Shown: in pieces, positions 2,862 through 63,598 of the stretch | Numbering within the stretch: the first letter of the stretch is position 1 | Layout of the letters: every line of letters starts with the position of its first letter | NCBI GenBank assembly: GCA_905178155.1 | Contig: CAJINV010000005.1 | Span: 4,071,556-4,135,555 of the forward strand | DNA from: Amoebophrya sp. A120 | Taxonomy: Eukaryota > Protista > Dinoflagellata | Direction of reading: 5' to 3' | DNA: 64,000 nt | Position numbers and translations under genes: made by a program | The notes under the pieces: model-generated | Told to the model about the DNA's origin: nothing | Database searches by the model: none | The model's input: only the letters and a program-made list of their open reading frames with translations

Positions 2862-5800
2862 CTACACTTGTTCTTCCTGGTCTCTGCAGGCCGCCAGGTG
2901 TCTCAACCTGGCGTTTAGCTGCTGTGTTTGCGGATCAAACTCCCGCGCCGCGGAAAGCAGGTCCGCCTCTATTTGGGGGATGAGCTCGTCCGCAGGGTCT
3001 TCATCTTCGCGGAGTTTCATCGAGGCCTTGGGAGAACCCGACTGCGATGCCACGTAGTCACTCAATTTCTCTCGCACACTATCCAATAGCGTCTCTGTGT
3101 TCACGTTGCGCATGCGGCACGATTCTGTTGCAAACGTCGCAGCACCGCTGAGGGGCGGGAGAACTGGCGGATAGGAGGTGGAATGATCCGGAAGCTGATC
3201 GCTGCTGTGGTCCTGTTCGGCACTACCAGCTTGCAGGAGCGGGGTCCCTGATCAAAGTTCGATTTCTTTGCGGTGGGGACTGCTCAGCACAACGTGGTTA
3301 GCACCGAGACAAGCAATAATGTTACTGTTACATATAGTTATTACTACGATGGGAAGGAGATCCATAACCACGAACCCAATGTGATGGATGCCGTATATAT
3401 AATCATGGTACGGCCACGGCGTTATCTGTTGAAGTGACATCCTTGAGAGCTCGTTGTACCACATCACGAACATCCATAGCAGAGTGCTGGTTCTTACCTT
3501 TGGCATTCGGTGTGGGTTCCTTTAGTTTTTTGTGTGCACCGCGAGGACGAGCAGCTGGGTGTGGAGGTGGTCCACCAGTTGTATTAATACCGTCGGATTG
3601 CGTATGCGACCTGAAATCGCGAATTTCCGCGTCTGACTGCACCGTCGTTGAGGATATCGAACCGTCCGCGTTGAAGTATAAAAGCGGCCGGTTCTTTTGC
3701 GGCTGCCGCTGCTCGCTGCGCTGCGAATTGTCTTGCTCGGAAGGAGCTCCCACGTATTGCTGTGAAGCTCCTCTAGCATTTTGCTTGTGGTTTTGACCCT
3801 GCTTGTTTTGATTCATCGTGGTCTTCGCGTAATGCACTGCATTGTCGTAAAGTTGCGAGGTGGGATTCAGGTGCTGCACCGGGACGAACTCTTGTGGCGG
3901 AGCCGGACTGGTGGCACTTCTGTTGGTCGAGATAGCTGGGCCAGCTGCGGCAGGCGATTGATTCGTTAATATCTTCCGCGACCGACTGCTGCTGCTATCC
4001 ACTGCTAAAAACATGTCCGGTGGACCTGCAGGGATGCGACCTTGTGATGCGGATTTCACATCACACAAAAATTTGTCATGCGAGGAAACCAAAAGTTGCA
4101 CAATTTTTGCCACCGATGAAAGAAGGGCTTTGTGATGCGAATCTTTGCGCTGCATTGCAAGAAAGAAACCTTCTCAAAGCCTGTAAAAATGCTAGGGCGT
4201 ACATGCCAGATCCTGCTTGTTCTGGCTCAGGCAAAAGCTGCATCACAAACCTCTGCATCCTTCTAGACCCAGACATATTTCTTGCAGTGGATAGCTGCTG
4301 CTACTGGACGATTGCAGCTGTTGCTGCGTCGTCCAGAGACCGTGCGTATCAAGTGTAAAAATGTCTGGGTCTGGAAGATTCTGAGATTTGTCGTGCATGT
4401 TTTGCATGACCCAGGATGTCTGTAATGCGCGACCGCGCATCACAGGTTTTGAGCTGGCTTCCTGATGCCTACTCCGCATGAGAAACGCCATCCCCGCGTA
4501 GCACAAACTAGACTCCTCTTGCTGGTCATGCAATACAGATTTTTCTAGAGTCCAAAGTTAGCATCACAAGTTCCAATCTTCCAGACCCAGACACTTTTAC
4601 ATTTGATAGTGCGTCATTCGTGTTCTCTCTGCGCCGTCCTCGTCGCCGAGCCCTACTGCTCTCTTGGGACGACCACCTCCCGGAGAACTACCTCCAACTG
4701 GAACTGCAGCATCGGTGCCGGTGCTGGTTGATGACACAATTGTCTCATGCTGGTGGTGGTGACGATGATGGTGCTCATGTTCTTGACGATGTCCGCCCGA
4801 AACTGCCACGCTAGTAGCATCGTCACCGTGCCCGTGGTGGTGGTGGTGATGATGCCGTAGCTGTTCATCTTGACCAGAAATCGCAGTTCTACTCTCGACA
4901 ACTGCACCTGCACCCCCCACGACCTGGGGGTTGTAAGATTGGTGGTGATGGTGATGATGTGTAGCGTGCATGTTCATCGCGCTTCCGTCCACCGAGGTAA
5001 CATGCTGCATCGCGGTGTCTAGGGGATTTTTCATGCCAATCTGCGTCATCATAGTTGTACTGCTGCTCGTCGCCGACGCTGACGCTGTCGCACCCCCGGC
5101 GACAGAAGACGACGGCCGCTGCTTGGGGCTGTGCCGCACCATCATCGGAGAGCCGCCGCTCGCCGGGCTGTAACTGAGAGTAGACGAGGCCGCGGCCGGT
5201 CCGCCCGCAGGAGAAGCATGGTAAGAACTCGTTGGACCAAAAGGGCTGGGACCGCGAGGTTGGACGACAGCGCTTTGTTCTTGTTGCTGTAGGTGATGTT
5301 CCTGATGATATTCTAATTGCCCCCCTGGCCCTGCGACGCGTGCCATAATTGCAGTTCCACCTGGCGCGGCGGAGCCAGCGAACTGTTGAGTTGTGGCACT
5401 CGAAACCCCGCCGCGGCTAATGCTTGATGAAGTGCCACCGCCTACCACATGGTTACTCGGGTTCTTGGCAAGCAGGTTTAGGTACTGCTGCCCGAGGGTC
5501 AAGCCTGGCCCTTCTGGGCTGCGGGCTGTCGGCGTCGTGGGAGAAAGCTGAGGGCCTCCAGACGTGGAAATCAAACTTCCGGGTGACGCGGCAGCGGCCA
5601 GACCACCAGCCCCCGGCGGCGCGAATAGGGTTCCCGTGCCCGTCGTTCCGGCAGGGTAGTGGACTCCCTCCAGCCAGTAGTTGCCGCTCAGCCTACGGTT
5701 GTCGTCGAGCAAGGGCTGTGCGAGCAGCTGCTTCACTTTTGACGGAATCTTCTTGTATCGCGACGGCTGGGTGAACGCGCGATTCAGGTGGGAAATCGAC

Positions 5801-8008: not shown

Positions 8009-11000
8009 TCATCCCGCAGACAGGTGACTGCTCCCACCACCTGGTACGCCGGGCGGCAGCATGGAGGACCCAGCAGGTGGCCCACCTTGGTGCCCGGCAC
8101 CAGCGCCTGCAATGTTGCCGCCTGCGCCCCCACCGCCCGGCGCTCCGTAGGAGGATGCTCCTGCGCCGGCACCCGTGCTTCCGGCACCGCCCCAGCGTAT
8201 GTACTCCTCGGTCTCCGCAGCCTTGTATTCTTCGCTGAGGGATAGGACCACCTCTTTGGATTCGTCGAATTCGTCCAGGGACTCGGAAAACATGGGCTCC
8301 TGGCGGTAATTTTCCAGGAACGCGTTGCGGGACCGGAGCTTGTCGTACTGCTTGATGCAACGATCGTATCGTACGAAAAAAGTGTTTCACTGTAAGGATT
8401 TTGCAATTTCTGCATCACAAGTTTGCTCTACATCACAGAGAAAATTTGCCATGCTAGATTCCTAAGGGAAAAGACAGCTAAAAATCCATTGTCTTGCATG
8501 TGTAGCAAGACAAACACTTCTCAGATACAGTTTCTGCATTACAAGTTCACAGTGAAGCAGTTTTTTCTTGCGATAGATCGAACAGGCCCGCGATCGCCGT
8601 GTGGTTGGCCAGCATCAAGCCCGAGACCTTGTTCTGGTGCTGTACGTAGGGCGACTGGCGGGAGAGCGCCACCTGGATGCTCGCAGGGCCCCACCGGATG
8701 AACTTCGCTAATTTGCGCTCCCGAATCCGCTGCAGCGACCGGTGTACCTGCGTGGGGTCTACTTCGCCCTGGATGATGTTCAAAATGCTGATGTACACAC
8801 CGCGTCTCGTGCTGCATATGGAGGCGTCAGAATTGAAATTGACAAAGTTGAAAAATTTGTGATGCATAAAACCGATACCAGTTGGAAGCCCAATTTCCAA
8901 GCGGCGCATGACAAATCTCGACGTCATCGAAATCCAGTTTGTCATGCTGTTTAGTGAAAGAAGGCATCCTTTGTCATGCTACTTTAGCAGCTCTACCCCA
9001 AACCCGAAACAGGCTCACAATCGGCCTCACTTGCAATCCCTGCAGGACAGTCACTTCTAGCCTTGCATTTTATGCATCGCAGATTATTTCAAATTCAACT
9101 TTGTCGATTTCGATCCTGACACTCCCATACTGCAGCTGACCATGATATTCTTGGCGTGGAGCAAACGCCGCATCACGTCCAGAACCGTGGTCTTGCGGAC
9201 CTGGTGTACGTTTTTCCGATATTTCTCTGTCAGTGTCGATGTCATCATAAAGATCATGATATCTATGCATGATCTTCCTGTTCGTCTACTTAACAAGTAG
9301 CGCATGACATGAGATTCAATAGAGCAGGTCGTGGTTGTGGATGACACCTGTCCTTCTTGCTAGACATAGTTATTTCCATGCTTGTTTGCGCAGGCGATAG
9401 GAAAAGCCAACACCTCCACCTCCGGCCCCACCCGGTCAGAATGAAATAAGTAGAGCTGGACTGATACTAACATGACTCACCAGAGGACTACGTCATTGTA
9501 TGCCTGCCGCGAACAACACGAGCACTGCCTTGTCACTGCGTACCGATCGATGGTTGTGGTTCTTGTACAGTTCTGCTAGAAAGAGTGTGCATGCATGGAA
9601 ATAAGCAACAAAATTGAATAAAATCAAAATCTTTGCTACCGCGGTTATTTGTCGGTCAATCATGAGTGGAGTATAGCCGGTCATGAGGAAATGGCACCGC
9701 GGGGTTGGGATCAAAGAAGCCACTATCCCGACGAGATCGTTATTCATGTACGATGGATATCGCAAGGTGGTCGTTGAGGCGGCCATAACTGAAAGAATGA
9801 AGTATATTATATTTGTATACCAGAAAACTCAAACTTCTTTGTATGTGCTTCTGCTTTCCCGTGTGATATGGCTCCATAGACGGTCGAATAACAAGAAAGG
9901 AACTTGTTTTTTTAGTTTTCATTCTCAGCTTCAGCTTTAATACTGCAATCAATGAATGAATTATGAACAATATCATCCACTGCAACAAGCATGAGCAGAG
10001 ATTAGGACCTCCTGCTTCTACCTGTGGAAACTAGTGTGTTGGTTTGTGCGAAGGTTGGGTTCTGGAGCTTCAAGCGATCCACTGCAATCCGATTCAGTGC
10101 CGTGTTGTCCAGAACCACCACGCAATCGGAGTTCAATGCGAGGCGCTTCAGCGTCAGAACGCTGTTATACGGTTGCACCACAACGTCGGAGGTTTCGCTG
10201 GACAACAGCGGAAATACCGAGTACGTCATTATCAACTTCTTCGGATACCTGTGGTGTTGTTGAGGACGAAGGTAAACGGCGGGAACTAAGTGGAATGGCT
10301 TTCGGCGGGCGCGCGTCAGCATCGCATCTTTCGACAAAGAGAAAGACGAAGTTCGCCCGCACTCTTGCATGAAACAGCTGCATTTCAAAAAATGTAGGCT
10401 GCAGCTTGAGCTTCAACTTCGTGCTCCATAGAAGGACATGAATGAATCATGTCGCAGTCGCATAAGAATCGTAGTTAATATAAAAAGTTTTCGAACACGA
10501 ACTACATGCTGATCCCCATCCGTTCCCGTTGCCCTTTGAAAGTAGCCACACTATATTACCAATAAGCTTCAGCTTTTCTTACCCGCAAGGACCGCAAGAC
10601 TAAACAAGAATTTTAGAAGAAGCGAATAGCACGGGCACGGGGACAGACCAGAACTTCTACAAGAATAAAACAAAATTATTTATGCGACGTCTCTCGCTCG
10701 TGCTCCCACCTTACCTGTCGTTTATGTTTTCCAAAATGTGCGACCCCATGCCGGAACCGGTGCCACCTGCGATGCGGTGTCCAATGCAATTATGCCCGCG
10801 TATGGAGCGTTGCGAAGCAAGGTTTTTTTTGTGATGCAGGTGTGTGGATGAAATGGACGGCGCGGAAGTTCTCATACAGGGCCAAGCATGAGGAGAAAAA
10901 ATTCTGACGCGGCGGCTGTGCGCTACCGTAGCACACATCAGCCACCGTGTGCGTAAGGCGTAACAGTTATGCTTATGCATGACGCACGAGAAACTACGAC

Positions 11001-11919
11001 TATGTGACAATCAAGGGAGTCAGGCTCTACTTAACTTGCTCGCGCCCTTCATTGATATGCACGACAGACACAGAGCCATACGTCCTGCCAGACAAGCATG
11101 ACACAAATCTTAGAAGACTGGCGGGACCACCTGCATCAGCGACTGACGATATCCAGCCAGCCAGTCAAATCTTGCAATCTTCCAGACTCAGACATATTTT
11201 GATTTCATACGGAGTGGATCAGGACGAAACCTTCGAGGCTGTCACTTCCGTCCGCCTCCCGGTCGATCATGTCGAAAATCTCTTCGCAATGTTTCTCGCC
11301 GGAGTGGAAGCCTTTTGCCTGATCATGGCGAATAAAAAAAGTAAAAGCAAGTACAACAAAATCGATTCTGCTCGTGCGCTACCGCCTCTTTCAAAGCCAT
11401 CACGCTGATTGCGTCTACTTGCAGAGGAACAGATAGAAGAGATGAGACGAGATGTGACTATTTCATTCTCATGCTGTGCGAGAAATGCGCCATCATGTGC
11501 GTCAGGTGCGGCGCAACCTGATCTTAGGCCACCTGCATGTTTCGGTGAACAAGCACAGATTTATTAATAATCCAAAACAAGAACAACTTATTTTATTTAG
11601 ATACCCAATTATTTCCTGCACCGCCACCCTCCTTACTGATGAAAATGTTCTCCGGGTTATACAGATCTGCATAGGACGAGTTTTGTATTGCATTGATGAC
11701 GCGCGGCTCGAGGTCGATGAGCAGTGCCCGCGGAATGTATTGCTCGTCATCCGCTTGGTAGAAGAAAACGTCTTTCCGATCGTCGGCCAAGTGCGTCGCG
11801 TAATCCTCCAAAATCCCCTTTTGGTTGATGCCATGCTCCGCGCAGAGCGTCTTCCAAAACTCCATACCAATCTGGTTCCCACATTGTCCCACCTGGAGCG
11901 TAATGATTTCTCGTGGCAT
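8009..11919 (-). CDS. TUBG1: Gamma-tubulin, 8 exons
   Basis: [18 protein letters not shown]..., GGGAGNNW|AKGF, HS|[13 protein letters not shown]|[14 protein letters not shown]|[48 protein letters not shown]|[23 protein letters not shown] introns at 11319-11604, 10249-10714, 9789-10021 and 9201-9639. Non-canonical introns at 10774-11210 and introners 8817-9129 and 8367-8575. Confidence 0.97.
8367..8575. mobile_element. Introner family 3 in gamma-tubulin
   Basis: TATCGTACGAAAAAAGTGTTTCACTGT ... ACAGTGAAGCAGTTTTTTCTTGCGATA; TSD GATCG; removal gives GLFD|RCIKQY. Confidence 0.93.
8817..9129. mobile_element. Introner family 2 in gamma-tubulin
   Basis: TATGGAGGCGTCAGAATTGAAATTGACAAAGTTG ... CAACTTTGTCGATTTCGATCCTGACACTCCCATA; TSD CTGCA; removal gives MVSCS|TRRGVY. 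Confidence 0.95.
10778..11209. mobile_element. Decayed family-1 introner forming a GT..GC intron of gamma-tubulin
   Basis: Right end TCTTCCAGACTCAGACATATTTTGATTTCATA, left end TGTCCAATGCAATTATG. The intron required to give HS|IAGG (10774-11210) is exactly element+5. Confidence 0.65.
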
Positions 11920-13449: not shown

Positions 13450-16177
13450 TCAGCAGGTGAAAAAGCCATAAGCGGCGTACAGTAGGCCGACAAAGCCGGT
13501 GTTTACGTAGTTCCAGCTGCTGGTATTCATGATGTACATGGCGAGGAGTACGCATATGAGGGCGTACATGCCTTTGATGCACGGGAAGCGTTGTACGAGG
13601 GTGATGGCCAGGGGGATAAACCCGAGCGAAAACTGGATCAGGAAATAGGCCTGCGGCATCGGTTCCGCGTACGAGCCCAGCGACAGGTAAGATAGGTGCG
13701 GGCTGCGCAGGGTCGCTTCCACCACACTCGCTATGGGAGCCGCGCTCGTGTCCGGGAGCCTTTGCGCGGTGATGGGAAGGTAGACGAGCGAAGCGGTCTG
13801 CAGGGCCAGCATCAGCAGAAACGTGCGCTCTTTCTGGAACAGCGTCCGCGTGAGGGGCCACGTCTGTGCAATTTTATATTTCTTTTTTGCCTACTTTACC
13901 AGAGTTGCTTCGAGTTGGAAAGTCGTGCGCAACAAGGATCAATATTTCAGAATTTTTGCATCGGAAGCACGATTGTTTTCGCTTTTCTGTATATTGAAAA
14001 GGAACGAAAAAGTTCAAAAAAATGATGATTTGCACATTCATTGGCTACGTCAGTCAGCTCTAAAAAAAAATAAATACGCTGGGATAGCGGATGACGTAGA
14101 CAACTCCGAGAACTAGGCCAAGAGTGTACTTGCCCAGGGTTAATGGCCATTGTGCTGTGAAGAGAAGTATCAAATGTAAAAGTGTCTGGGTCTGGAAGAA
14201 TGCAACTTGTCATGCTAAATCTGAAGCATGCAAAAATCTGTGTTGCATGATTGCCAAAAGTCGTCCAGTTTTGACCAAGTCGTGAGGGAGTTTCTCATGC
14301 AGGATAGGCATGAGAGAGATCGCACAGAATCTGTCGTGCTAGGTCCTGCATTCCAGGCCTCATGGGTCATGGAAAAGCTGCATGACAAATCGCGCATTCT
14401 TCCAGACCCAGACATATTTGCAATCCATAAGAAGCAGCATGAGGAGGAGCCAGCCGTGCCATCGGGGTTCGACAGTGAAGGTCTGCATTTGAAGAAACTC
14501 ATCGCGAATCTGTGAGGGCGCGATTTTGGGATTCTGAAAGTGGTACAGGCACTGCAGGCATACTAGCGTCGGCTCGATGCCTCGCAAGATGGGAATTGGG
14601 CTGAGACTATCGACTGCAAGAAAGGGTGTCTTGGACAGCAAAATAATATACTCAATTTATTTCGGTGGAGTTGAAGATATCGATCATTATCGTGACCATG
14701 AACAAGGACGACCCCTGTTTTCTGCATCTTGAGATGACTGCTTGTTCAAAGTCCACTTACTTTCTGCAAGAAGATCACGTTCCGACATAATTTCTATGTC
14801 CAGTAAAAAATGAGGACTGTGAACAAATCTATCACTTTTGGCGTTCGGGAGCGAAGCCCTCAGCTGAAAATGCATTTGCACAAGCCTTCCTCCCTACATG
14901 AGCTGTAAATCTGCTGAACCAACTGACATCCTTGTGTTCGATACGCCCCGCCTTCAGGGGTAACGGAGAGCTCAAAATCCGTCAGCCTGAAGTAACTCTG
15001 GAAAGCAACCATGGCAGCGTGCAGAACGTATACAAGGGGAAAACGATTTTGCCACCGTAATCTACTTGCGACGTCATGCACCGAGTCCCGCAAGACCAAG
15101 AGCAAGACGCGCACGTTCTTCATAGCGTGCGCGTTCCCGCCAGTAAAAACCTATTCGATAGCCATACACTCATGATTTGCCTTAAGGGCGGCGCACTGCA
15201 GATTTTCTCTCTACTGACACAAGCTAGTCCTAGTTCGTTGCATTTCGTGGTCATGATGATGGTGTCATGGGTAGAATTTGGGTGTCGTGAGACAAGAATT
15301 ACGGTGGTGCACGTGCAGTATCTGTGTGCGATAAACCCAGAAACCGCTTCAAAAAAGTACTGGTTCCGATAAGCGATTCATACGTGTACCTGTGGCAGTT
15401 GTGTACAAGTTTTTCTGTTCCTACAAATTTCCATGGATTTTGATTTTCTATTTTAATGGACTGTCTGTGATGGTTTCCCAGCGCACGTGCTGCTGCTGGT
15501 ACAACTTTGCACCCCCATGCTGGTGTCGAGAATTGCGACAGTTGTTTTTCTATCGCGAGAGATGAAACCTGACTAAGTACAACTAGCTCAGCAATTGAGT
15601 TTAGTGTGCACGAAAGAAAACAATATTGTAGTCCAGCAAACAACAAACAAAAATGAAAATTGTTCTATCTTTATCTTTTTCATTAGCATTACCCGAATAT
15701 AATGAGCATGCTCCCGATGAGGCACGTGCGCAAAAAGCCCGAGTACGGAACGAACCAGTGTAGTATTGCGCTTGTGATCAGTTGGTTGTTACTGCTGTAG
15801 GCGCCACTGGTCGGTGCTGCGGCGTTAGGTGTTGCGCTGGTATCGGCGCCGCCGCGTGTTGTGCTTGTTTCTGGTCCCCGCCCCGTTGGGGAGCTGACGG
15901 CGCGACTTAGGGAGTCCAGATTTAGAACCCATCCCCTGCTGGTGTCAACATAGCCATACCAGTCGAGCCACCAAACACCCCACATCATCAGGAAAAAGGA
16001 GAAGCAGAAGGGCGGCGCTTTTTTGGTTCGGCTGAACACATGCATCAGAGTAAACACGCTCTTACAGCAGTCTTTGCAGAACTGGGCCGGGCCCTTCTCT
16101 GCAGCCGGGTTCCGAACTGCCGACATAGGTTTTCTTTTCGCAGTTACGCTGGAATAAACAGGTTTGAATCTCGACAA
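13450..16177 (-). CDS. Multi-pass membrane protein of unknown function, multi-exon
   Basis: Hydrophobic ORFs 15689..16177, 14860..15123, 14360..14641 and 13450..13812. Introner removal gives WHGWLLLMLL|LFTAQWPLTLGKYTLGLVLGVVYVIRYPS, then GT-AG intron 13864-14077 joins in frame to TWPLTRTLF. Confidence 0.65.
14168..14429. mobile_element. Introner family 1 (right end of TATGG type)
   Basis: TATCAAATGTAAAAGTGTCTGGGTCTGG ... CCAGACCCAGACATATTTGCAATCCATA; TSD AGAAG. Confidence 0.95.
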
Positions 16178-17323: not shown

Positions 17324-19093
17324 TTACCAGATAAGAATGAGGTACACCAGGAACCACTCGCCTTTCTCCAGGGTACTGATGTTCTATAACCCTCTCAGGT
17401 GTTACAATCTCAAACGTTACAATAGAATATGGAAATCTGTGATGCAACAAGACTGCACGATCTAGCCAACTTTCATAGGATTGCGCATGACAAGTTCTGG
17501 AGTCCCAATCCGCACTACAATCTGGCGACATTTGTATTGCAGAAAGTGAAATGCTGTCCGAGTCTGTCATGTTCATCATGCAAGACAAATCTCAGACTCT
17601 ATTGCAACGCTTGAGATTGTAACACCTGAGCGGGTTATATGTTCACCTCGTTCTTCTTCTTCGGGAGCTTGTCCGTGAGGTATGCAATGGCGTCCTTTTG
17701 AAAGGCGATGGTGTCCTGATCCAACTCGGCTTATTACAATGAAAAGTGCCCCCATCCCCGAACTTGGAAGCGTTTGCATTGCAAACGTTTCCAAGTGAAA
17801 CATTCGCCCTCTTGCATCTATCAGCATCACAGGTTTCCAATCGTGAATACGAAAAGCAAAAATTTGTATTGCAAAAGACCCCAGCAAGAGCGGCGGTTGT
17901 CATGCAAGCGATGCGATACTTACACGCCTAGACTCTGCATCGGAAAGATTCATACTCCTTTCATGCATGACAAAAAGTTTTCATTTGGAAACTCCGCATC
18001 ACAAATTTTTGCAAATTCAGGGGTGGGGGGCACTTTTCACTGTAATACGGTTTGCCCCTTCTTCGGACTCGCTTCCCGCTCCTCGATTTTCTCCAGTGCC
18101 TTCAACAGCTTGCCCCGCACCCCGTCTTCCGTTTTATTACAGTGAAAAATGCCCCCACCCCCAAAGTTGCAAAAATTTGTGATGCGAAGATTCCAAATGA
18201 AAACTTTTTGTCATGCATGAAAGGAGTATGAATCTTTCTAATGCAGAGTCTAGGCGTGTATCGCATCGCTTGCATGAGAAGCGCCGCTCCTGCTGGGATA
18301 TTTTGCAATACAAATTTTTGCTATTCGCGATCGGAAATCTCTGATGCTGATAGATGCAAGAGGGCGAATGTTTCATTTGGAAAAGTTTGCAATACAAATG
18401 CTCCCAAGTTTGGGGGTGGGGGCATTTTTCATTGTAATACGTTTCGCGTTGGATTTTCTGGGCCTCCTTGATGAAATTCCGGTACATCTTTCGTTCCGCC
18501 TCCTGGTCAATGTTCGTGACGCCGTACTTGCACCGAACCACGATTTTGTCATCCTCCTCGTCTATCCACTCGAAAATCTGCAGCAGCGCACCCCCAGTGT
18601 CAACGAGCACGAACCGCAAGGCGTGAGTAATGTAGTCGCAGCCGTCCCTCTATCAAATTGAAAAACTGTGCCCCCGCCCCAGTAGATTTTATTTCAGAGA
18701 GCGTTTGTACTTCCAAGCCCCCACGACCCTTGATGGTGGAAAAACAAACTCGCAGCCCTGTGCAAGTAGTACTATGTCAGCAACGCGACTTTTCCTCCCA
18801 GAATAATCAAATTTTGCGCTGCCCAGAATAATCAAATTTTGTATTGCGCAGCGGTTCAACATCGTTTTCGTTAGCGATGTCTGTAATAAGGTGAGAGCCG
18901 CGCAACAAGCCTGGTCGGATTCTGGACCGAATCGAAACGAATGAATTTAGTATAGATACATCACATTCATGAGAAAGAGATTCTTCATGTGGAAGCTCTG
19001 CAAGGCAAACACTTCTTCTTTCTGGGGATGCGGAACAACTTTTCAGTGTGATAGGACCGCCATCATGCGCTTCTTCGTCGCTTCATCGTCCAT
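17324..19093 (-). CDS. Hypothetical protein split by four introner-derived introns
   Basis: Reconstructed MDDEATKKRMMA|RDGCDYITHALRFVLVDTGG...KIQRET|EDGVRGKLLKALEKIEEREASPKKGQT|ELDQDTIAFQKDAIAYLTDKLPKKKNEVN|ISTLEKGEWFLVYLILIW*. It may instead splice on into the coding-like ORF 16530..16970. Confidence 0.7.
17385..17639. mobile_element. Introner family 6
   Basis: TATAACCCTCTCAGGTGTTACAATCTCAAACGTTACAATAGA ... TCTATTGCAACGCTTGAGATTGTAACACCTGAGCGGGTTATA; TSD TGTTC. Confidence 0.93.
17732..18047. mobile_element. Introner family 4
   Basis: TATTACAATGAAAAGTGCCCCCATCCCC ... GGGGTGGGGGGCACTTTTCACTGTAATA; TSD CGGCT/CGGTT (1 mismatch). Confidence 0.93.
18135..18439. mobile_element. Introner family 4, inverted relative to 17732-18047
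   Basis: TATTACAGTGAAAAATGCCCCCACCCC ... GGGGTGGGGGCATTTTTCATTGTAATA; TSD CGTTT; interior is a close reverse complement of the neighbouring copy. Confidence 0.95.
18651..19053. mobile_element. Decayed family-4-like introner, now a GT-AG intron (18650-19057)
   Basis: Ends TATCAAATTGAAAAACTGTGCCCCCGCCCC / GGGGATGCGGAACAACTTTTCAGTGTGATA. No TSD match, but the in-frame GT-AG intron is exactly element+5. Confidence 0.75.
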
Positions 19094-21256: not shown

Positions 21257-21334
21257 GCTGAGGCGCATTCTCCTAGCGCAGGAGATGTTTTTACAGCCGA
21301 GTCATATTCTCCTAGTGCAGGAGCTGTCTTTACG
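21257..21334. repeat. 39-bp tandem duplication
   Basis: GCTGAGGCGCATTCTCCTAGCGCAGGAGATGTTTTTACA followed by GCCGAGTCATATTCTCCTAGTGCAGGAGCTGTCTTTACG. Confidence 0.8.
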
Positions 21335-22992: not shown

Positions 22993-23280
22993 GGTCTGCG
23001 AATTTTCAAAATTTTATTTTTTATTGGCTGCGAAGGTATGCAAGGCTCGACCGTCTCAACAATTCTACCCTGTTTTTGGCTGCAAAGGTCCGCGGAATTT
23101 CAAAGTTTTATTTTTATCGGCTGCGAAGATCCGCGAAACTTTAAAGTTTTATTTTTATCGACTGCGCGGGTCCGCGAAATTTCAAAATTTTATTTTTATC
23201 GACTGCGCTGGTCCGCGAAATTTTAAAGTTTTATTTTTATTGGCTTCAAAGGTCCGCGGGGTTTTGGCTTTCTATTTTCT
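22993..23280. repeat. 41-bp minisatellite
   Basis: Units resembling CGCGAAATTTCAAAATTTTATTTTTATCGACTGCGCTGGTC start at 23091, 23132, 23173 and 23214, with a partial at 23255 and a degenerate unit near 22997. Confidence 0.9.
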
Positions 23281-24587: not shown

Positions 24588-24814
24588 CTAATCGCCTTTT
24601 TTCACGTTTGCGTTTTCGAATAGCCAATGGTCATCCTCTAGTCGAATTGCCTCGCGACGAAAACCGTCCATAAAGAGCGCAATCCGCTGTCTCTGCTCCT
24701 CCTCGGTAAGCTGTGCCACTGGCTATCGAAGCAGTAAACCACACCACTGCGCTAACGTGCCTCGTCGTGAAAGGAAAAAACAGAGGCAGGAAAAGGTGGG
24801 AAAATAGGAAATGC

Positions 24815-52697: not shown

Positions 52698-53038
52698 TAT
52701 CCTGTGCAAATGTGCCTAGGGGGTAGGATATTTGCTTCGAAGCTCGAAGCTTTCAGCACAAAAGGCGAAAGTTTGCCACGCAAAAAACGCGAGCTTGCGT
52801 GAAGGACCGAGCAGATTGAAACTTTTCAAAAAGGTCGGCAATTGTCGACCTTTTTCAAAAATTGCAATCTGCTCGGTCCTTCACGCAAAGTCACATTTTT
52901 CTTTTAGAGCTAAATCATTTCTGCTACGCCAGAAGCTGGTGTAGAAGCAGGTGAAGAAGTTGGTGTAGAAGCTGGTGCAGAAGCTGGCGAGTATATTCGT
53001 CAGCTTTTCCTACCCCCTAGGCACATTTGCACAGGATA
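52698..53038. mobile_element. MITE with TAT...ATA ends and 5-bp TSD, apparently intergenic (family 7)
   Basis: Perfect 31-bp TIR TATCCTGTGCAAATGTGCCTAGGGGGTAGGA; TSD AGCAA; internal palindrome 52795-52888; short tandem AGAAGCTGGTGT repeats at about 52931-52990. Confidence 0.92.
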
Positions 53039-53654
53039 AGCAAAGTGCACATGCAACTTCCGAAAATCTTCCATGGATGAAATTTCAAACTCAAGAAGAA
53101 GAAGAAGTCTGTATCTACTTATGACAGGTGCGCGTGCGCACTTGATGACAGAAATATCGCAGAATACCATCCCCAGTATCGTCGTCGCATACCACGTTCC
53201 CTACGTGTCTTCTTCCTACAACCATGAGGGTGTGCTCCGTGCGTTGCGCTCGGCTGCCTCTCATTTCAGTTTCAGACTCAGGACGATGATGAACCATTGC
53301 TTCGTATTCCATGTCGAATCGGTGTAGGTGTTGATCTTCATGTCTTTTCCCCCAGCGCGTCAGGGTCGCCGGAGTCTGGCTCTAGTGGAATTTCCTCGAT
53401 GATCCTTTCTAGCATGTTCAGAGTCTTCGCTCCGGAATTCTTGCTGTTTCGTGCAGAAAATGCCTAGCATATCTTCAAGCGTGACTTTCAGTTTACCCCC
53501 GCCACGCATTGCATGCTGCTCCTGCATAGTAAAATAGAATACTAATCTTCATTGCGCGCAAGGCAGAACTTCCATCGCATGTTTCACTTTATTCAGCCAT
53601 TCATCGCCAACATTTCAACGGAAAAAATACTGATATCATAAAAAAATTCATCAC

Positions 53655-55508
53655 TTACACATACACTGGCTGTTTCCTGCATGATACCGAGTCAAGAAGT
53701 GCCAGCCTGTCGGCTGTGAGGTCGCTCCCAGTCCCATCGCCACCCGTCACTCTACTAGAACTAGCTCTCAAGTTCTGGTGTTGAAGATCACCTTCCTGCT
53801 GCATTAGCCCAGATGTCGTGTCTACGCCGCGAGAAGAGCGAGCGAAGCTCAATCTCCCCATGGCCATTTGTGCGCCTACCGATTTGCCAGTGGTACCGCC
53901 GGAGAAGTGAGACTGTGTGCGCATTTTTCGACTTCGAGGCGAAAAGCACCACGACCAGAGGACGAGCTTGCTCGATTCGTGTTCCTCGAAAAATGCTGGA
54001 GGTTGCATGAATGAATACAATACAACCAAAGATATCAAAAGATATTGACGAGGCGGGGGGATCACGCGGCGTACACACGCTTACTCACAGTCACATAGAA
54101 ACATGAGGCATTATCAACATCATTTTTGTGAGAACAGAAGAGGTGTGCGCTAGTTGTTCATCTTGATGCACAATTTTCTATTTCTTTACGGTCGTAACCG
54201 CAACCAAGATCTTGGTTTGAAATTTTTTCTTGTGGCACGTGGACACTTGTTCAGATTTGATATCGAAAACGGACCGTCGGGGGCGGCTTCAAACTGCGTT
54301 CCTGCTAATCTGCCCTCGTGAGTGGAGGATCGGGCTTGCGATCTGGGATCTGCGTATCCGGAGAAGCACTCGGCGTGGTACCTGGTCGATATGCGGGACC
54401 CGCGTCGCTCGGTGATGGGCTCCCCAACTTGCGTGAAAGGTTTTCGACACTCGCGGCACATGTGGCCCAGGTCACTTCTCTGCGCCAGCCGGTGTATCAA
54501 CTGTAAAAGTGTCTGGGTCTGGAAGATTCTGACACTTGTCACGCACGTTTTGCATGAGCCATGATGTCTGTGATGCATACCCTAGCAATACAGATTTTTT
54601 GAGGGCTTCTTGATGCGTATTCCGCATGACAAATGCCTTCTCAGCGTAGCAAAAATTGCATTCCCTTTGCTACTCGTCATGCAATACAGATTTTTTTGGA
54701 ATCCAGATGCAGCATCACAAGTTGCATTCTTCCAGACCCAGACATTTTTACATTTGATACGGTGCTGATAGTCCCAATACATCGTCTCGTCCCCAGCCCC
54801 AATGGTTGTTTCGCTGCACGCAAGGGAAAATGCCTTCCCCGACGCTGCAACGCTGGGATGCAGCGAGGGCGCTGCTGACCAGGTCGACCTTCGGGTCGTC
54901 GCCACGGATGCCGTGTCGTCTTGTTGTTCTATGCAAAGAAAAAAGTGTTACAGTTACACATTGTGTTGCAAAACACACAAGCGAGACGACTTCTGTCATG
55001 CGCAAAATGCTTGCGAGTCTCGTTTCGTGTGTGTTTAGTTTTGCCTTATGATCTCTGCATTACTCTGTCATGCGGGACAAAGTTTTTATTGTGATGCTGA
55101 ATTCACTACAAATGTGTAACTGTAACACTTTTTTCCTTGGATATGTTGGGTCGCACCGCCAGTAGCTCCTCCGGGGCGATCATCTCCTGAGGCACCCTGC
55201 AGCTCTGCTCCGTCCGGCTCTTCGGGCTGAATGGCTTTGCGCGACGCCGAGGTTGCATTGCCGCGGCCTCGGCGAATAAGGGTCTCGTCCGCCCGAGATA
55301 AGAGCCCACCCCGGCGGGCAGCTCCGGCTCCATGATCAGCATCGGAATTTTTGGACGAGGCGGTGCTCGTCGCGGTCACGGCTTTCGATGGCTTGGAAAA
55401 TCCTTTTTCTTCCAAGAGCTGCTGTTGACGCTCGACGAGCGAAAGCCTTGTTTTTTTCGGATTACTACTAGTCGTTCGGTGGTTTGAAGAAACTTCGTTC
55501 TCAGACAT
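53655..55508 (-). CDS. Protein with CxxC...HxxC zinc-finger-like domain
   Basis: After removing two introners: ...GATQ|QQDDTASVATTRR...YWDYQHR|LAQRSDLGHMCRECRKPF...RYHAECFSGYADPRSQ. The 3' end is uncertain and may extend to about 53.1 kb. Confidence 0.7.
54495..54759. mobile_element. Introner family 1
   Basis: TATCAACTGTAAAAGTG ... TACATTTGATA; TSD CGGTG. Confidence 0.95.
54930..55143. mobile_element. Introner family 3
   Basis: TATGCAAAGAAAAAAGTGTTACAGTTACAC ... GTGTAACTGTAACACTTTTTTCCTTGGATA; TSD TGTTC/TGTTG. Confidence 0.92.
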
Positions 55509-56660: not shown

Positions 56661-59600
56661 TTAGGCGCGGCGACTCTTCCACTGCAGCAAGGCCCCCAAA
56701 TCGTTTTGCACGAGGTGCCTATGGATGCGTCAGGTTCGAAATCGACAAAGTTGAAAGGCTTTGCCACGCATAGAAAGATAGAGATACTGTCTAAGTGGCG
56801 CATGACAAATTTTGGCAGTTCCGAAGTCCAGTCTGCCGCGCTGTTTCTACTTCGGCAAAGAAAACCGCTTCTGTCGTGCTGCTTCAGCAGCCCTACCCTT
56901 ACCCCTAAACAGGCTTGCAATCGGCCTCATTCGCCTGCTCTCTTATAGTATACAGAAACAGATCGTCGGCGGGATGCTTTTTATGGATATGCAAATTTTT
57001 CAACTTTGTGAATTTCGATCCTGAGGATTCCGTAGTGCATGTATTTCCCGTAGTTGGCCTGCCCGCGGGCCATGCCTAGAATCACTCTGGCAGCATCCAC
57101 CCCCTCGCGGTCGTTTAACTTCTTGACGAGTTCGAAGTGCGTCTCCAGGAGCGCAATGCTCTTCTCCGGCTTTTCGACCGCCAGCAGAAGGCCGAGACTG
57201 AGACACGCCTTCGCCTTATCCCGTGTAAAAAAGCGTTTCAGCCCATCGGCAAGATGGTAACTTTGCTACGGGAAGCAGCAACCTTTGGCTGTTGCGCATG
57301 ACCAGTTTGGCCTCGTAGTGCAGTCCGTTTTAGCTAGGTAGTGCATCCGCGTGATAAATCGACTACATTATCCTGGTTCCACATTAAGAGGCAATCCCCA
57401 AATAGCATTGGAACGTGCTCCTCATCATGGGGGTGCGCATGAGAAGATGAAACTTATTTTACTAGGCTTATCCTTATGCATACTGAAACTAATTTGCATG
57501 AAAACTCTGGGGTCGAGACGTTTTTACTCAGGATACGCCTGCGCTTCCAGTTCTCCGGCCTCCGCGGCCACCGTCAGCAGCAGCTCGAGCTGCAAGACCG
57601 CTTCCTCGATATTGCCCGTGGCCTCATACGCCTGCGCCAGTGCCGATCGCGCATTCGCTTCTCCCGCTCGATCCCCTTGTTTCCGACAGATATCCAGGTA
57701 TTGCTGCTGCAACCTGATATGGGAGGGGCCATTGGGAAGTCAACGAGTAGGCGAAAAAAATGATTTGTAATTGTAATTGTAGTATGTCTATGTCATGCAC
57801 TCGCACTGTCACCCACGATAATAAACATCTTCTGCCTTGCCAAGAAGTAGAATGTGCATGTGGGCGTTTTCTATATTTTTGCAGAAATTATTGAAAATAT
57901 TTTGTTTGAGGGTCTGCAGGCCCTGCAGCTGTTCGAGAAACCAAGCAGAAATTTTTGCATCACCCAACACGTGTAAGTACGACGGTCGGTCAAAAGCATC
58001 ATTCTCACAGAAGAATCTCATTGAAAATCACCATGGAGTGCTGAACATCTAAGTTGTATATGCTAAAAGTAGCAGGAGACGAATTTGAAGTGTCCGTAGG
58101 ATCGAAACCAAAGTGAACGGCGGGTGCTGAAACGCATTATGGCAGGAGCACACCGCAAAATCGTACAGAACGCGAGACCCTGACACTAAATGATCTCTGG
58201 AAAGTTTGGTCTGTTGTGGAAGCAAGTGGACTCAACGGGACGGAGGTCGAGGTGTCGATGTTTATAAGTAAGAAGTAGATACTAATTTATGCATGGCAAA
58301 TTTTTTTCTTCCCAAGTTGGCGAGTTCATCCAATCTAACATCTTCATACCTGATGGATTCTCCGTATTCTCCGGACAGAGTTTTCGCCTTGCCGAGTTGA
58401 TGGCAATTCGTGCCCTCGAGCTTACTGTCTTTCGCGAGTTTCGCACAGGCCACGCATTTCTCAAACAGGTCGCATGCGGCACGGACATCGTCGTCGGTGG
58501 GACTATTACTCAGAAATCGATCCGCCTTTCCCAGAGAAAAAAGCACAGGTAGGCCATATTTGTATAATGCAAAAAGAAATACACAGCTAAATCCGTCATG
58601 GGCCGCGGCCCCATAGCATGCTGTTTAGGATATGCAAGATTTTTTGTGTATTAGTATTTATTTTTGCATTTACATAAACAAATTATATCCTGCCTGCTTT
58701 TTTCTGTGTGATACCGCCAACACCTTGTAGACATGGCAGAGCTGGAGGGCGCTCTTTATCTGCAGTGGCAGCGCGTTGCTCTGCGTGCTTAGTTCCAGCG
58801 CAGTCTCGTGGTAGGTCATGGCGTTCTCCCAGTTTCCTAACTTCTCCTCACACGTTCCCAGATTGAGGTTGGCGGTCGCGATGGACTCCACTACGCCAGC
58901 TTCCCCGGCAACCTCCAGACAGCGATGATGAAAGTAGCGGCTTGAGGAAATCGCGTCTTGCTTCTCAAAGAAGTGTATGGATGGCAAATGTGTCTGGGTC
59001 TGGAAGATTGCAACTTGTCATGCTAAATCTGAATCATGCCAAAAATCTGTGTTGCATTTGAGTGCCAAAAGCTGTTCACTTTCGACCAAGTTGGGAGGGA
59101 ATTTCTCACGCAGGATAGGCATGACAGAGGGCTCACAGAGTCTGTCATGCGAGGTCCCGCATTCCGCCCCTCGTGGGTCATGGAAAACCTGCGTGAAAAC
59201 TTTGCACTCCTCCAGACCCAGACATATTTGCAGTTGATAAACTCGGCCAGGCCACTGTACGCGTCGACCGCCAGATGATAGTTTTTTGCGCGTCGGGAAG
59301 TCTCAGCTCGCTCCAAAACGCCTTTTAGGAACCCCAGGTCCACTGGCTTTCTTTCGTGATCCAGTTTTTTGGTGGAAGTGCCATCGTCTTTGTCGGCTGC
59401 TATCCTGAGTAAAAGCGTAGCCACACCAGAGTCAGGATGAGGATTTTGCAACACAAGCCTAGGAGTTTTGTGAGTCACGCATGGCAAGTTGCTCTATGCA
59501 GTGTAGTGCAGGTTAGCAACTGCAGCCGCGTCACAGATTCATCTGCTCATCCTGTTCACAGCATCACAAATTCCAAAACACAATTGGAAATGGCTCTCAT

Positions 59601-59957
59601 GGGGATGCGCATTACAAGAACAAGTCTTCCTGTCTTTGCAAATCTGCATTACAACTCTGGTGTGGGTACGTTTCTACTCAGGATAGCTGCAACAGATTCC
59701 TCATCGGCCTGCGCCATCTTCAGAAGATCCACAAAAGAATCCACGCAACCCTCTACAAGAAGGTCGATGCAGTGGCTTTTCCTATCCTTCCTCTGTTCTG
59801 CGGCGGCAGCGGAACTCTTCTCCGCGGTCTGGGCATCACCCGCGCCGCTGCCGCTCTGCACCGCAGTTGTTCTCCCCGTTGCATCCAGCTGAGAGGAAGG
59901 GAGCGCACCAGTAGCGCGAAATTTCACGCTCGTTTGGTACGCCGCTGGTATTTCCAT
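56661..59957 (-). CDS. TTC29: Tetratricopeptide-repeat protein, TTC29-like (flagellar), 7 exons
   Basis: CIDLLVEGCVDSFVDLL at the N-terminus, TPR helices (ANLNLGTCEEKLGNWENAMTYHE; ARSALAQAYEATGNIEEA) and C-terminal LGMARGQANYGKYMH|LVQNDLGALLQWKSRRA*. All six introns are introner-derived and restore frame. The family call is from memory of the motifs. Confidence 0.75.
56720..57034. mobile_element. Introner family 2
   Basis: TATGGATGCGTCAGGTTCGAAATCGAC ... ATTTCGATCCTGAGGATTCCGTA; TSD GTGCC/GTGCA. Confidence 0.9.
57217..57535. mobile_element. Introner family 5, diverged
   Basis: TATCCCGTGTAAAAAAGCGTTTC ... GAGACGTTTTTACTCAGGATA; TSD CGCCT; EAQA|KACLSLG. Confidence 0.88.
57718..58348. mobile_element. 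Highly decayed introner whose TSD creates a GT-AG intron (57714-58349)
   Basis: TATG...CATA ends and perfect TSD CCTGA (sense TCAG|G); ESIR|LQQQYL. Confidence 0.7.
58527..58713. mobile_element. Short diverged introner
   Basis: TTTCCCAGAGAAAAAAGCA ... TGCTTTTTTCTGTGTGATA; TSD CCGCC; KVLA|DRFL. Confidence 0.82.
58976..59239. mobile_element. Introner family 1
   Basis: TATGGATGGCAAATGTGTCTGGGTCTGG ... TTTGCAGTTGATA; TSD AAGTG/AACTC (2 mismatches); frame restored. Confidence 0.9.
59401..59685. mobile_element. Introner family 5
   Basis: TATCCTGAGTAAAAGCGTAGCCACACCAGAGT ... ACTCTGGTGTGGGTACGTTTCTACTCAGGATA; TSD GCTGC; SVAA|DKDDG. Confidence 0.93.
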
Positions 59958-61133
59958 CTTGTTTTTGAAATTTTAAATCGTTCAACTTGCGCTGAGTCCT
60001 TGAGGGTGCAAATCTATATCAAACTTGCGTCAGCACCCACGGCAGCGGTCTTTTCAGGTACTTGTCTCGCGGCTGTAGTGCGTGCAAGTCGCAGCCGCCC
60101 TTGCGCGGGACGGGAGCTCAAGTGTCGAATAGGGTCCAGCTGAGCGAAGCAACCAAGTATCGGCCGAGCAGACCTCCAGTGCAAACTGCTACTGCCCTCT
60201 CGTTCGCTCACTCACATGATGAGCGTACTATCGCACGACGACAAGAGGTCCTACGCTTGTTCCTTGCGTAGTACACCCACTCTCATCTCTGAGCTCCGAA
60301 ACAGCCGATTTTCTTCTCCGGCACGACTCGATACGAACCAACACGAAACAGGGAAAATAAATATCACCTCAGCAAAAACAAAAAACGCCGTGTCGCAAGG
60401 CGTAGATGACACGTAGGCGATTGAACCCATCCACCAGACGGTGGAGCCCACAAACAAACGGCAACATCAAATCCGTGCGAGCATTTCTTTACAAGAGATG
60501 TAAAAGGCACCGTCGTCAAGATCCATGTCGTTCTTATCAATCTATCTGAAGTTTTCATTTGATTTACTTATTAGCAAAAGAACCGGGGTACGGTTTCTTG
60601 TCCCTTTCGTGAGAGGGGAGTCGTCCCGTGCTCTGTGTGGTCTGGTCATCTCTTCTTGTTTCTCTTCGACGTAGGCCGCGCGCCGTCTGCAGGCCATTTG
60701 TACCAGTGCAACATTCGCGGCATTCAGAATTGTATTGTTGCATCAACACGGCGACCCAAGCCCGATATGCATGACTATGCTCGTCGTTGTATATGTAAGA
60801 TTGGCAATACATGCGGATCTTTAAAATGTATCAAGATGGCTATCATGGGTCTACGTACTGGTGCAGTCTTCCTCGAACAAGAAATACGAGACCTTTTTTG
60901 ACTGCCACAGTATCGTGAAGCGCTCGAACTGAGCTCTGGAGCTCTCTGAGCTGCGGACATCTACCGGCACACTAGGCTAGGCAGTTGCTTCATCAAAAAA
61001 CAAAGAAATCGAGGATTGATCATTGACGTATTCATGACAATTATGAGAATGACAGAAGCAGAACATCACAGCATGTAAGTAGGAGTATCATTTCTGCACC
61101 AATACCAGTCTGAAGCCCGCACCAGACACATCC

Positions 61134-63598
61134 CTACAGCTTGTTGCTGGCGCCATCCCCCACCAGCGTCTTGCCCTTCATTGCTGCAGCTGGCGGTCGC
61201 GGCCCTTTATAGGACTTTAAGAAGGCCTCGATATCGTCGGACCCATAGCCCTTGGCCCGCATGCGCGCGTTTCTGCCCTTCGGATCTTTCGTTTTCAAAT
61301 CCAGGCATCCATCCTGAAACTGACAAATCGCTTCCACAACGGACAACCGGCCGCTCCCCGCCGCGAGCAGGAGAACAGAGAGGCCCTCGCGATTCTTCTC
61401 ATTTATGTCAATCGGGTTCATATCCAAACAAAAAACTTGTACTTGATCACAATACAACATTTTTGCACATTCTTCTTGCGAATACAAAAAGTCCAATTCT
61501 ACTGGTGGCATGCGTACTACTATAAATGCATCAACGTAAAGTATTTACGAAGAAAAAAAAAGAACTTTGTCACGCGAGAGAAATAAATTTCTGAAGATGC
61601 AAGACTTGCAAAAGTGTGAGTACTATGACTGTGTGGTTTTTTCTCGCATAATTCATCAGCTGGAGTTTCTGTTTTTTCCGCAGGATCCTGTGGGAGTGGT
61701 CCTTTTCTGACAGACTTGTGCTCGCCCCGCCGCTCCATCGCGTGGACCATTCCAAAACTTGCTGAATGATGTGTGCGTGACCAAACGCAGCGGCAATGTG
61801 GAGGCAGGTGTTGCCGCGCTTGTCCTGCGCCGAGAGGTCCAGAATGTCATCAGGGTCGTAGGCGGTTTGCTTTTCAACAGATACGTCGTCCCCCTCCCCC
61901 AGATGTTGTTCATCTTCAGTGGCTTCTGTGGTCGTTTCTGTTTCTCCACCCCTTCCAGCAAGAATTGTCGTGGAGGCAGCTGCAGTGTCTGGAGCAGCCG
62001 CGGATGCGTCAGAGCAAACGGTTCTTTCCCAACTGAAGAGAGCGCGCAGCGTTTCGCTCCACTTTCGCTTTTGTCCCTCGTCTGCTGACGAGGCATCCAG
62101 GAGATCGTCAGCCATCATCAGTTCCGCGCATTTGAAAATGGTAGCGACCAGTTCTGTTTCCCCGAGGGCGCAGGCGTGGATGAGCGGAGTGGTGCCCTTT
62201 TTGTTCGCCAGATTCAGCAGCTCCTCCTCGCGGATCTTCCTGCGCAAAACTACATTGTCGAGAAACAAGTCTTGCAATATTTTTCGGCTCCCGTTCCTAA
62301 TCGCGTACAGCAAAACGGAATCTCCGTCACCCTCGTCAAGAAGGGAAGCTTCCTTCCCTAGGTTGAGCTGCAATGAAAGGTCCAACTGCGCCGCCAGGTC
62401 TGGCGACTTGCATATTCGGTCGTAAAATATATCGTTACGGTATCAAAATGAAAAACCGCCCCACCTCCACAGGTGATAGATAAAATAAGTATGTGCGCTG
62501 CGATTGCGAAGTAATTCTGATAACGCCGCAAAAAAAAAGTGGCCCCCTGTACATTGATGCAGCCTTCTTACCGTCAACTTTTCGCGATGGAACCTTTCTA
62601 TCTGACGCACCAAATGCTGAGCAAAAGTTGTCTTTTCCTCTTGCGCTAGGCACCCAGAAGTGCCAGAGCGGCCTTTCCAAAAAAAAGTCCGTCCCACATG
62701 ACATTGACAAAGAGATGGCCCCGCGCCCGCCCTGCAAATGCAATAGAAAAAAATACAACGAAAAATCTCGTCAATGATGATCGTTCGTCTACTAAACCGG
62801 GGAGTTGTACTTATCTAAACGTCCACATAACAAGGTGGTCGTCCATTTTCAGCGAAGAACATTCCACCTGCGTGGAGGTGGGGCCGCACTGTTGGCGTTT
62901 GATATGCCTCCGTGCACCGCAACCATCAGCGGAGATTCGCCGCGAAGCGTCGCCAAGTTCAGGTCGAGCAACATTGGCGGACTATTCTCCACGCTCCGCG
63001 TTTCATCGTCGTGAGACGACGCGGTCGTGAAACAGAAGGCTTCAGCGATTTTCACCTGCCTGAAGAACTCGTCGAGAATCTCTTTTGACGCGTTTTGATT
63101 GGCTAAAATGTGCAATGCGCCCTGCCCCATTTCGTTTTGCGCGTTCAGCACGGTTTTCAGCACGGCCGTACAACCAGAAGACCTTATTTCGCCAGCGCGG
63201 TCTTCTTCATCCTTCGCTTTCTCGAGAATCTTACCGAGCAGCAGTTCAAACACCGCCTTGCAATGCGCCACCGCTGCACTAGGCTCGTCGCACGACTGCT
63301 GACACAGCATGAGCAAGGCACTGTCGCCCCATCCATCCTTCAGGCCCAAGTCGATTTTTGGCGCGCTGGCGAGTTTTGAAACCACTTCTACGGGTAGCTG
63401 TCGCTTGATGGCGTAGTGGAGCGCAGTTTGCCGTCCCGGCCCCGCAGCGTTTACGCCCCCGATGGCTACCAAGGCGTCAGCGGCTTGGAGGAATAGCGAC
63501 GCGTCCTCAGACGTCTCGGCGTCGGAAAAGACTTTCAATTGCTCCAGCTCCGCAGAGGCAATACTCCACTTGCCCTTTTTGTCCTCGAAATCCACCAT
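61134..63598 (-). CDS. Ankyrin-repeat protein
   Basis: GRQTALHYAIK, GDSALLML, GQGALHILA, GESPLMVAV, GTTPLIHAC, GNTCLHIAAAFGH and GLSVLLLAAGSG across ORFs 62849..63598, 61570..62385 and 61134..61511. Confidence 0.9.
62441..62904. mobile_element. Decayed family-4-like introner in the ankyrin gene
   Basis: TATCAAAATGAAAAACCGCCCCACCTCCAC ... GTGGAGGTGGGGCCGCACTGTTGGCGTTTGATA. TSD diverged (TACGG/TGCCT), but removing element+5 gives VHGG|NDIFYDRICKSPDLAAQLDLSL in frame. Confidence 0.8.

Follow-up and report, generated by a model that had tools for sequence, protein, structure and literature searches.

Transposon-like introns of Amoebophrya sp. A120 are lost from transcripts with five extra bases, likely at one fixed spacing

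Non-canonical introns with inverted repeats are already described in the dinoflagellate Amoebophrya sp. A120. Farhat et al. (2021; PMC7789003) reported inverted repeats of 8-20 nt starting with TAT, direct repeats of 3-5 nt and RNA-seq-validated junctions, and found the spliceosome of this strain to be nearly complete except that U1 was missing. Gozashti et al. (2025; PMC12130899) assigned A120 families an origin in DNA transposons with terminal inverted repeats (TIRs), with about half of the annotated ends non-canonical. The non-conventional introns of Euglena (Nomura et al. 2025; PMC12501133) have fixed spacers to a paired terminal motif, coexist with GT-AG introns and have been proposed to derive from miniature inverted-repeat transposable elements (MITEs). 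In C. elegans and in human cells, SOS splicing takes inverted-repeat transposons out of mRNA, untranslated regions (UTRs) included, without GU-AG (PMC12779559). The canonical introners of Micromonas, Aureococcus and Symbiodinium are MITE-like, carry TIRs and a target-site duplication (TSD), and are removed seamlessly with one TSD copy (PMC9860276, PMC11282704). We examined a window of 64,000 nt of A120 (the whole stretch analysed; contig CAJINV010000005.1, positions 4,071,556 to 4,135,555) in which TAT...ATA elements interrupt genes. An earlier note had proposed that each element is removed with five further nucleotides as a non-GT-AG intron, guided by TIR pairing and the direct repeat.

The window proteins match published A120 models, and the host is Amoebophrya sp. 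A120. A protein search with the first gamma-tubulin exon returned Amoebophrya sequences, and their cluster included P0121. The spliced gamma-tubulin model was identical to A120 protein P0121 (505/505 residues) and that of a 156-aa gene to P0123 (156/156), and the partial model P0124 crossed the element at 50963 as predicted. These A120 models are not independent of RNA, because they were built from transcript alignments. The elements shared with published A120 introner elements the host, the TAT-type TIR, repeated families, non-canonical RNA junctions and a direct repeat within the 3-5-nt range: 5 bp, in the example of Farhat Fig. S19 as in 25 exact cases here. Both sets read TAT, seven freer bases, then AAA, include some canonical introns of the same layout and hold no transposase inside (PMC7789003). 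The phenomenon is already known, as a class and in A120; the earlier note linked it correctly to the genome and element class of Farhat et al. and overstated its novelty. What is added here is a single register that fits all 14 RNA joints, with cuts one base ahead of TAT and four bases past ATA, and a dispensable direct repeat.

The closest systems differ in detail. The automated calls of Gozashti et al. vary by family (co-opting the 5' end, the 3' end or both; TSD 2-5), with no common register among 21 of 58 A120 rows (PMC12130899). Euglena introns have a CAG/CTG motif, spacers of 3 and 5-6 and a purine at the exon start, and hybrids are rare (PMC12501133), whereas the window elements had TAT/ATA with spacers of 1 and 4, showed no significant preference at the exon start, and did not follow N3-CDG / CHG-N5-6. 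SOS splicing is imprecise, leaves indels, needs pairing and depends on AKAP17A, CAAP1 and RTCB (PMC12779559); here the dominant junctions were exact, in contigs that hide rare variants. Canonical introners carry or co-opt GY and AG (PMC9860276, PMC11282704), whereas here any 5-bp target served, in either orientation.

A scan of the window for spans of 150-600 nt with a TAT start, an ATA end, an exact 5-bp flanking duplication and terminal complementarity of at least 12/20 returned 25 elements; 30 third-order Markov simulations returned 0-2 each, 3 in total. With decayed duplications and termini added, some of them revealed by RNA joints, there were 43 candidates between 3996 and 62904, all in minus-strand genes, about 11 in number (Table 1). 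The earlier note had the elements right and its counts (33 in 9 genes) too low, and its six or more TIR families became at least nine with window members, each of at least four copies. At 187-631 nt, the elements were short, non-coding and multicopy, with TIR and TSD, as in MITEs or non-autonomous TIR transposons. The predicted intron is the TAT..ATA span plus 1 nt upstream and 4 nt downstream, in transcript sense. Most elements lay in coding exons as the note had said, three of them in gamma-tubulin; 52698 was a removed element within a 3' UTR. Removal of element plus five left open frames of 2017 aa across seven junctions (a giant gene), 426 aa across six and 603 aa across three. The note's further claim, that this restores the frame in every case, failed at 49793-50118, where 3, 6 or 9 extra bases would restore it. 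Its stops at 4597, 9084 and 8547 were correct first in-frame stops, and all 40 coding elements tested had one (34310, 49793 and 52698 excluded), so the copies are not translatable.

A wider set of 276 oriented elements was drawn from loci L001-L130 (14 of 317 dropped as unorientable; the orientation classifier was correct on 23 of 27 window elements). Among 912 TIR pairs in these loci, the longest direct repeat was 5 nt in 235, 4 nt in 5 and 3 nt in 8; the 611 without one were probably mostly termini of separate elements paired by the scan. Neither a base preference in the TSD nor avoidance of helix extension by the TSD was significant. Pairing by terminal position (271 elements) was 96-99% at positions 1-3, 51-77% at 4-7 and 95-97% at 11-13. 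The weak stretch leaves a short end helix followed by a loose region, and could reflect unlike left and right transposon ends. By-eye reading found no transposase-like open reading frame (ORF) in three of five long TIR pairs (L026, L060, L063), which held host genes or no long ORF. L026 contained a 972-nt insertion (3001-3972) with terminal complementarity of 20/20, an exact TSD and no long ORF, in a gene that we take, by eye, to encode the RNA polymerase II largest subunit.

Removal was assessed in runs X1-X4, which come from one sample labelled 'RNA?', judged RNA-type by its loss of GT-AG introns and available as contigs, from which rare variants are lost; the raw RNA runs X9 and X10 gave 10 and 2 reads. 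A joint survey of 45400-63100 across the four runs yielded 16 joints, of which the 15 listed comprised 14 distinct introns and one alternative acceptor. All 14 distinct introns among the joints listed began at a TAT-type terminus and skipped the element plus 5 nt. The downstream ends of 53932 and 60699 were taken from the joints themselves, making the length rule circular there; the upstream constraint is not circular. In the giant gene at 51-43 kb, the unique exons were not covered by the RNA contigs (45586, 46022-48625, 49793). A 2193-nt X1 contig fitted the gamma-tubulin model, from which four GT-AG introns and three elements had been removed, at 5/5 coordinates; usual GT-AG introns thus occur beside the elements. 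In the DNA-like run X5, long contigs passed unbroken through 10778, 18651 and 26352 with no differences. The elements are present in DNA-type contigs and absent from RNA-type contigs, and element plus five is the exact length lost. The 14 introns and the gamma-tubulin contig bear out the proposed removal at the RNA level without GT-AG. An alternative GT-AG product was seen at 53521-53687, where an element donor (53687) was joined to an AG inside element 53447; it occurred in one of four runs, at depth 10 vs 29, and would alter the C-terminus.

Where the duplication is intact, the cut may slide over six positions; diverged copies fix it. Six joints restricted the register (53447, 53932, 58976, 60699, 61421 and 62441; Table 1), and the intersection of the allowed sets of all 14 was {1}, a cut one base ahead of TAT and four bases past ATA. 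Random registers shared a common value in 0.4% of trials with 14 joints, and in 5.8% with the 12 non-circular ones. The A120 protein models at 10778, 17732 and 18651 also allowed this value (Table 1); at 18651 an equal-length GT-AG reading was available at register 4 and was not the A120 model's choice. Register 1 places T at +2 in all 14 joints. It is likely that cuts fall at one fixed spacing, a rule drawn within one window from six informative joints and from three protein models. The Fig. 3 legend of Farhat et al. describes variable sites and an unknown border, and their Table S4 gives N-T at the 5' end in 9/9 predominant A120 non-canonical motifs and T-T in 9/9 A25 motifs (PMC7789003). 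Unlike in that account, one register fitted all joints here and entails the T at +2, and the direct repeat was dispensable. Our literature search found no paper stating the register or the dispensability of the direct repeat; Farhat supplementary figures S19-S25 may show 1/4 as the commonest, and Roy et al. 2023 may bear on it too. Amoebophrya is unmentioned in PMC13326754, PMC13149111, the preprint of Roy et al. 2023 and the available text of the SOS splicing paper (PMC12779559).

Several features expected to guide removal were not needed. Copies of the direct repeat matched at 1-2 of 5 positions in six removed introns (53447, 62441, 60699, 53932, 10778 and 18651), whose length and register were unchanged. 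The direct repeat is dispensable, contrary to the guiding role given it by the earlier note, because these six introns with diverged copies were still removed. Both orientations of the main family had RNA joints (54495 and 58976), and removal is independent of element orientation. Relative to inferred transcription, this 262-nt family was oriented 64:54. One family of 42 copies (about 254 nt; 27710 and 46797 in the window) was oriented 11:31, and the others were near even. Predicted in-register pairing of the ends was strong in young copies and little or none in the removed 53932, 60699, 61421, 62441 and 57718. Terminal pairing looks dispensable in decayed copies on these predictions, which speaks, for these copies, against the note's other guide, TIR pairing.

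The junction sequences were equally permissive. No GT-AG, GC-AG, GA-AG or AT-AC was found in any of six registers in 30 of 42 window elements, nor any standard end pair in 9 of the 14 introns with RNA joints. The description of the introns as non-GT-AG stands for those 30 and fails for 45586 and 57718, the two of 42 that read GT-AG in register 1; the elements as a set did not have U2-type ends. In register 1, the 276 elements included 8 with GT-AG, 90 with GT and 23 with AG, as base composition predicts. A purine at the exon start was seen in 167/271 (p 0.04, uncorrected) and in 110/187 of the confident set (p 0.6). Removal has no junction-sequence requirement, and GT and AG occur at chance level only.

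We suggest that these are non-autonomous inverted-repeat transposons removed with five extra bases, the catalyst most likely being a modified spliceosome that keeps U at +2 and does not need the first G or the final AG. We give this reading a probability of roughly 55%. Insertion into DNA came with a 5-bp target duplication, the transposase presumably being supplied in trans; a single register would apply to all copies. The terminal TAT..AAA / TTT..ATA motif, helped by a hairpin in young copies, may serve as the ruler for a spliceosomal catalyst, with branching, at a guess, at an A that lies seven or five bases short of the 3' end. Since the 1 and 4 bases add up to the length of the 5-bp target duplication, an element would be seamless, and elements with 5-bp TSDs could therefore invade exons. 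A more specific form falls a little short of even odds: a U1-less spliceosome that has given up both the first G and the final AG would follow a second, ruler-type code, N-TAT ... ATA-NNNN, and measure 1 and 4 bases from the palindromic terminal motif, which would explain genome-wide invasion via seamless introns, at any site and in either orientation.

Spliceosomal removal is supported by T at +2 in all 14 introns, by the donor at 53687 that is shared with an ordinary GT-AG product, by the GT-AG readings of 57718 and 45586 in the same geometry, and by precise cuts placed asymmetrically on a symmetric hairpin, unlike in SOS splicing. The T in second place in all nine A120 and all nine A25 predominant motifs of Table S4 points the same way, and A120 is reported to have 83 of 89 spliceosomal proteins together with U2, U4, U5 and U6 (PMC7789003). 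Several observations weigh on the other side. U1 was not found in A120 (PMC7789003). No lariat, circle or intermediate was seen, in contigs only and from the one 'RNA?' sample. The T at +2 doubles as the first base of the transposon, which confounds its constancy, and a hairpin would hide the donor from U6. The alternative product has a GT donor and may not speak for non-G donors; SOS splicing also yields hybrid products (PMC12779559). G at +1 was not enriched in decayed copies (18/56 vs 87/262). Stronger conservation of +2, +3 and -7 was sought in the 276 oriented elements and no asymmetry was found: the termini were about equally conserved (5' mutations 2/1/6, 3' mutations 4/3/4), and +2 was changed in 2/276 and the -7 A in 4/276. 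Taken joint by joint, a register of 0 for some copies and of at least 1 for others may hold; just 6 of the 14 joints are truly informative, and 49793 breaks the simple element-plus-five rule.

Some of these observations would suit a spliceosome-independent pathway, in which an endonuclease or RNA-assisted cleavage and an RTCB-type ligase act at the terminal hairpin with the same fixed spacings, as a precise cousin of the SOS or Euglena pathway. The lack of selection for G at +1 or AG, removal in both orientations, equally conserved termini, strong predicted in-register pairing in young copies and the missing U1 all fit it; Euglena has fixed spacers around a paired motif (PMC12501133), and inverted-repeat pairing triggers SOS splicing (PMC12779559). 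We nevertheless hold it, though the main rival, to be rather unlikely: SOS splicing is imprecise and leaves indels (PMC12779559), five introns with little or no predicted in-register pairing were removed, a GT-AG product shares one of the donors, and the same geometry gives a GT-AG reading in two elements. Cutting across these mechanisms, spliceosomal or not, is the reading that the register varies between copies and that the few informative joints agree on one value by chance. The six informative joints, the 5.8% chance without the two circular ones, the misfit at 49793 and the description of the sites as variable by Farhat et al. (PMC7789003) speak for this; the 0.4% obtained with all 14, the agreement of three protein models and the T in second place in all Table S4 motifs (PMC7789003) make it improbable.

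The remaining alternatives are weaker still. Self-splicing, in which the hairpin would bring an adenosine near the 3' end up to the 5' cut in the manner of group II introns, would account for the A seven bases from the 3' end in all 43 candidates and for a 5' cut one base from the helix end. It is very improbable, given no internal structure conserved across families of 187-631 nt, no match in an Rfam search of the window, and the removal of decayed copies that lack pairing. We think it scarcely credible that the joints are template switches that reverse transcriptase made at short direct repeats, across the hairpin. A hairpin combined with a direct repeat is a known recipe for such switches (PMC13149111) and the data include no direct RNA sequencing, but joints sharing 0-1 bases keep the same geometry. 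Removal with diverged repeats therefore counts against template switching, as do the essential gamma-tubulin frame, which needs the joints, and the in-frame stop in every tested element. DNA excision is just as hard to credit. Excision of ciliate internal eliminated sequences (IESs) takes the element plus one repeat copy, and X1-X4 could hold DNA. An IES would be absent from the working DNA, whereas X5 contigs pass through three elements (15 of 348 joints listed; X5 may be the source of the assembly), and X1 is missing the four GT-AG introns as well and leaves 19.0-25.0 kb uncovered.

Table 1. Candidate elements and the gamma-tubulin coding region in the window. Register, nt removed before TAT; TSD, identical positions; runs, RNA-type runs with the joint.
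Feature	Position	Strand	TSD	Remarks
Element	3996..4293	-	exact	removal leaves 778-aa ORF
Element, main 262-nt family	4347..4608	-	exact	
Gamma-tubulin coding region	8011..11919	-		505 aa; 4 GT-AG introns + 3 elements; identical to P0121
Element in gamma-tubulin	8367..8575	-	exact	RNA contig coordinates and P0121 identity
Element in gamma-tubulin	8817..9129	-	exact	RNA contig and P0121
Decayed element in gamma-tubulin	10778..11209	-	2/5	register 1 or 2; RNA contig and P0121
Element in 16.4-13.1 kb transcript	14168..14429	-	exact	
Element, 156-aa gene	17385..17639	-	exact	fits A120 model P0123
Element, 156-aa gene	17732..18047	-	4/5	register 0-3
Element, 156-aa gene	18135..18439	-	exact	relative at 17732 oppositely oriented
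Element, 156-aa gene	18651..19053	-	1/5	A120 model permits register 1 or 2 only
Element	26352..26609	-	4/5	
Element	26720..26980	-	exact	
Element	27076..27337	-	exact	
Element	27405..27655	-	4/5	
Element	27710..27962	-	homopolymer	transcript-sense repeat without G
Element	28373..28690	-	exact	
Element	29817..30136	-	exact	
Element	30349..30567	-	exact	
Element at exon/GT-donor border	34310..34558	-	3/5	
Element	36601..36855	-	exact	
Element, giant ORF	43121..43357	-	exact	
Decayed element	45586..45920	-	1/5	GT-AG in register 1/4
Element	46022..46231	-	exact	
Element	46320..46637	-	exact	
Element	46797..47047	-	exact	
Element	47992..48254	-	exact	
Element	48625..48887	-	exact	
Decayed element	49793..50118	-		frame not restored by element + 5
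Element	50963..51224	-	exact	P0124 crosses as predicted
Element in 3' UTR	52698..53038	-	exact	4/4 runs
Decayed element	53447..53686	-	1/5	unambiguous joint, register exactly 1/4; donor also joined to internal AG
Strongly decayed element	53932..54262	-		downstream end taken from joint; register 0 or 1
Element, main family	54495..54759	-	exact	3/4 runs
Element	54930..55143	-	4/5	2/4 runs
Element	56720..57034	-	4/5	3/4 runs
Element	57217..57535	-	exact	1/4 runs
Old element, decayed TIR	57718..58348	-	exact	GT-AG in register 1/4; 1/4 runs
Element, one mutated terminus	58527..58713	-	exact	2/4 runs
Element, main family, orientation opposite to 54495	58976..59239	-	3/5	register 0-2; RNA joint
Element	59401..59685	-	exact	1/4 runs
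Strongly decayed element	60699..61136	-		downstream end taken from joint; register 0 or 1; 4/4 runs
Element	61421..61650	-	4/5	register at least 1, first intron base T; 4/4 runs
Element in ankyrin-repeat gene	62441..62904	-	2/5	register 0 or 1; 3/4 runs

The host genes were examined further. HSI stood at the gamma-tubulin junction in 113 of 118 homologue motifs, in support of the register above. The first gamma-tubulin GT-AG intron (11319-11604) starts with G followed by TAT, and A- and T-tracts lie close to the element positions; it is possibly an old element turned canonical, as are 45586 and 57718. The element at 34310, within 34143-34559, lies exactly at an exon/GT-donor border, and taking it out in register 1/4 brings back the donor of a GT-AG intron whose end is near 34143; a cysteine-rich frame at 34143-34559 would therefore need either splicing in two nested steps or a hybrid splice, C-T...AG. 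The giant minus-strand gene (37800-51350) is membrane-protein-like and forms its one 2017-aa ORF once the elements are removed. No Pfam match was found in the pieces scanned, the public A120 model found covers just the first 155 residues, and of two homologue searches one returned nothing and the other two fragments, neither reaching 49793. Ankyrin repeats were the sole named domain in a Pfam scan of 18 exon pieces. The exon model of the 16.4-13.1 kb transcript was not unique, with 560 solutions. The stretch 19900-24450 had no genes and carried a 48-nt unit at 20908, 22659 and 24394 (spacing 1751 and 1735) and a 41-nt tandem array at 23000-23290; X1 had no cover over the stretch, which is probably another repeat or retroelement remnant.

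The border of the published elements was left undefined, and a fixed 1/4 register would make their removal mechanism testable, down to the place where a lariat should branch and the bases to mutate. It explains the T in second place in all 18 predominant Table S4 motifs, unremarked in the available text of Farhat et al., and why 5-bp-TSD elements alone are harmless in exons, and it would correct A120 intron annotation. If removal is spliceosomal, Amoebophrya would have among the most relaxed splice-site rules known; if it is not, the organism would have a precise transposon-removal pathway parallel to that of Euglena.

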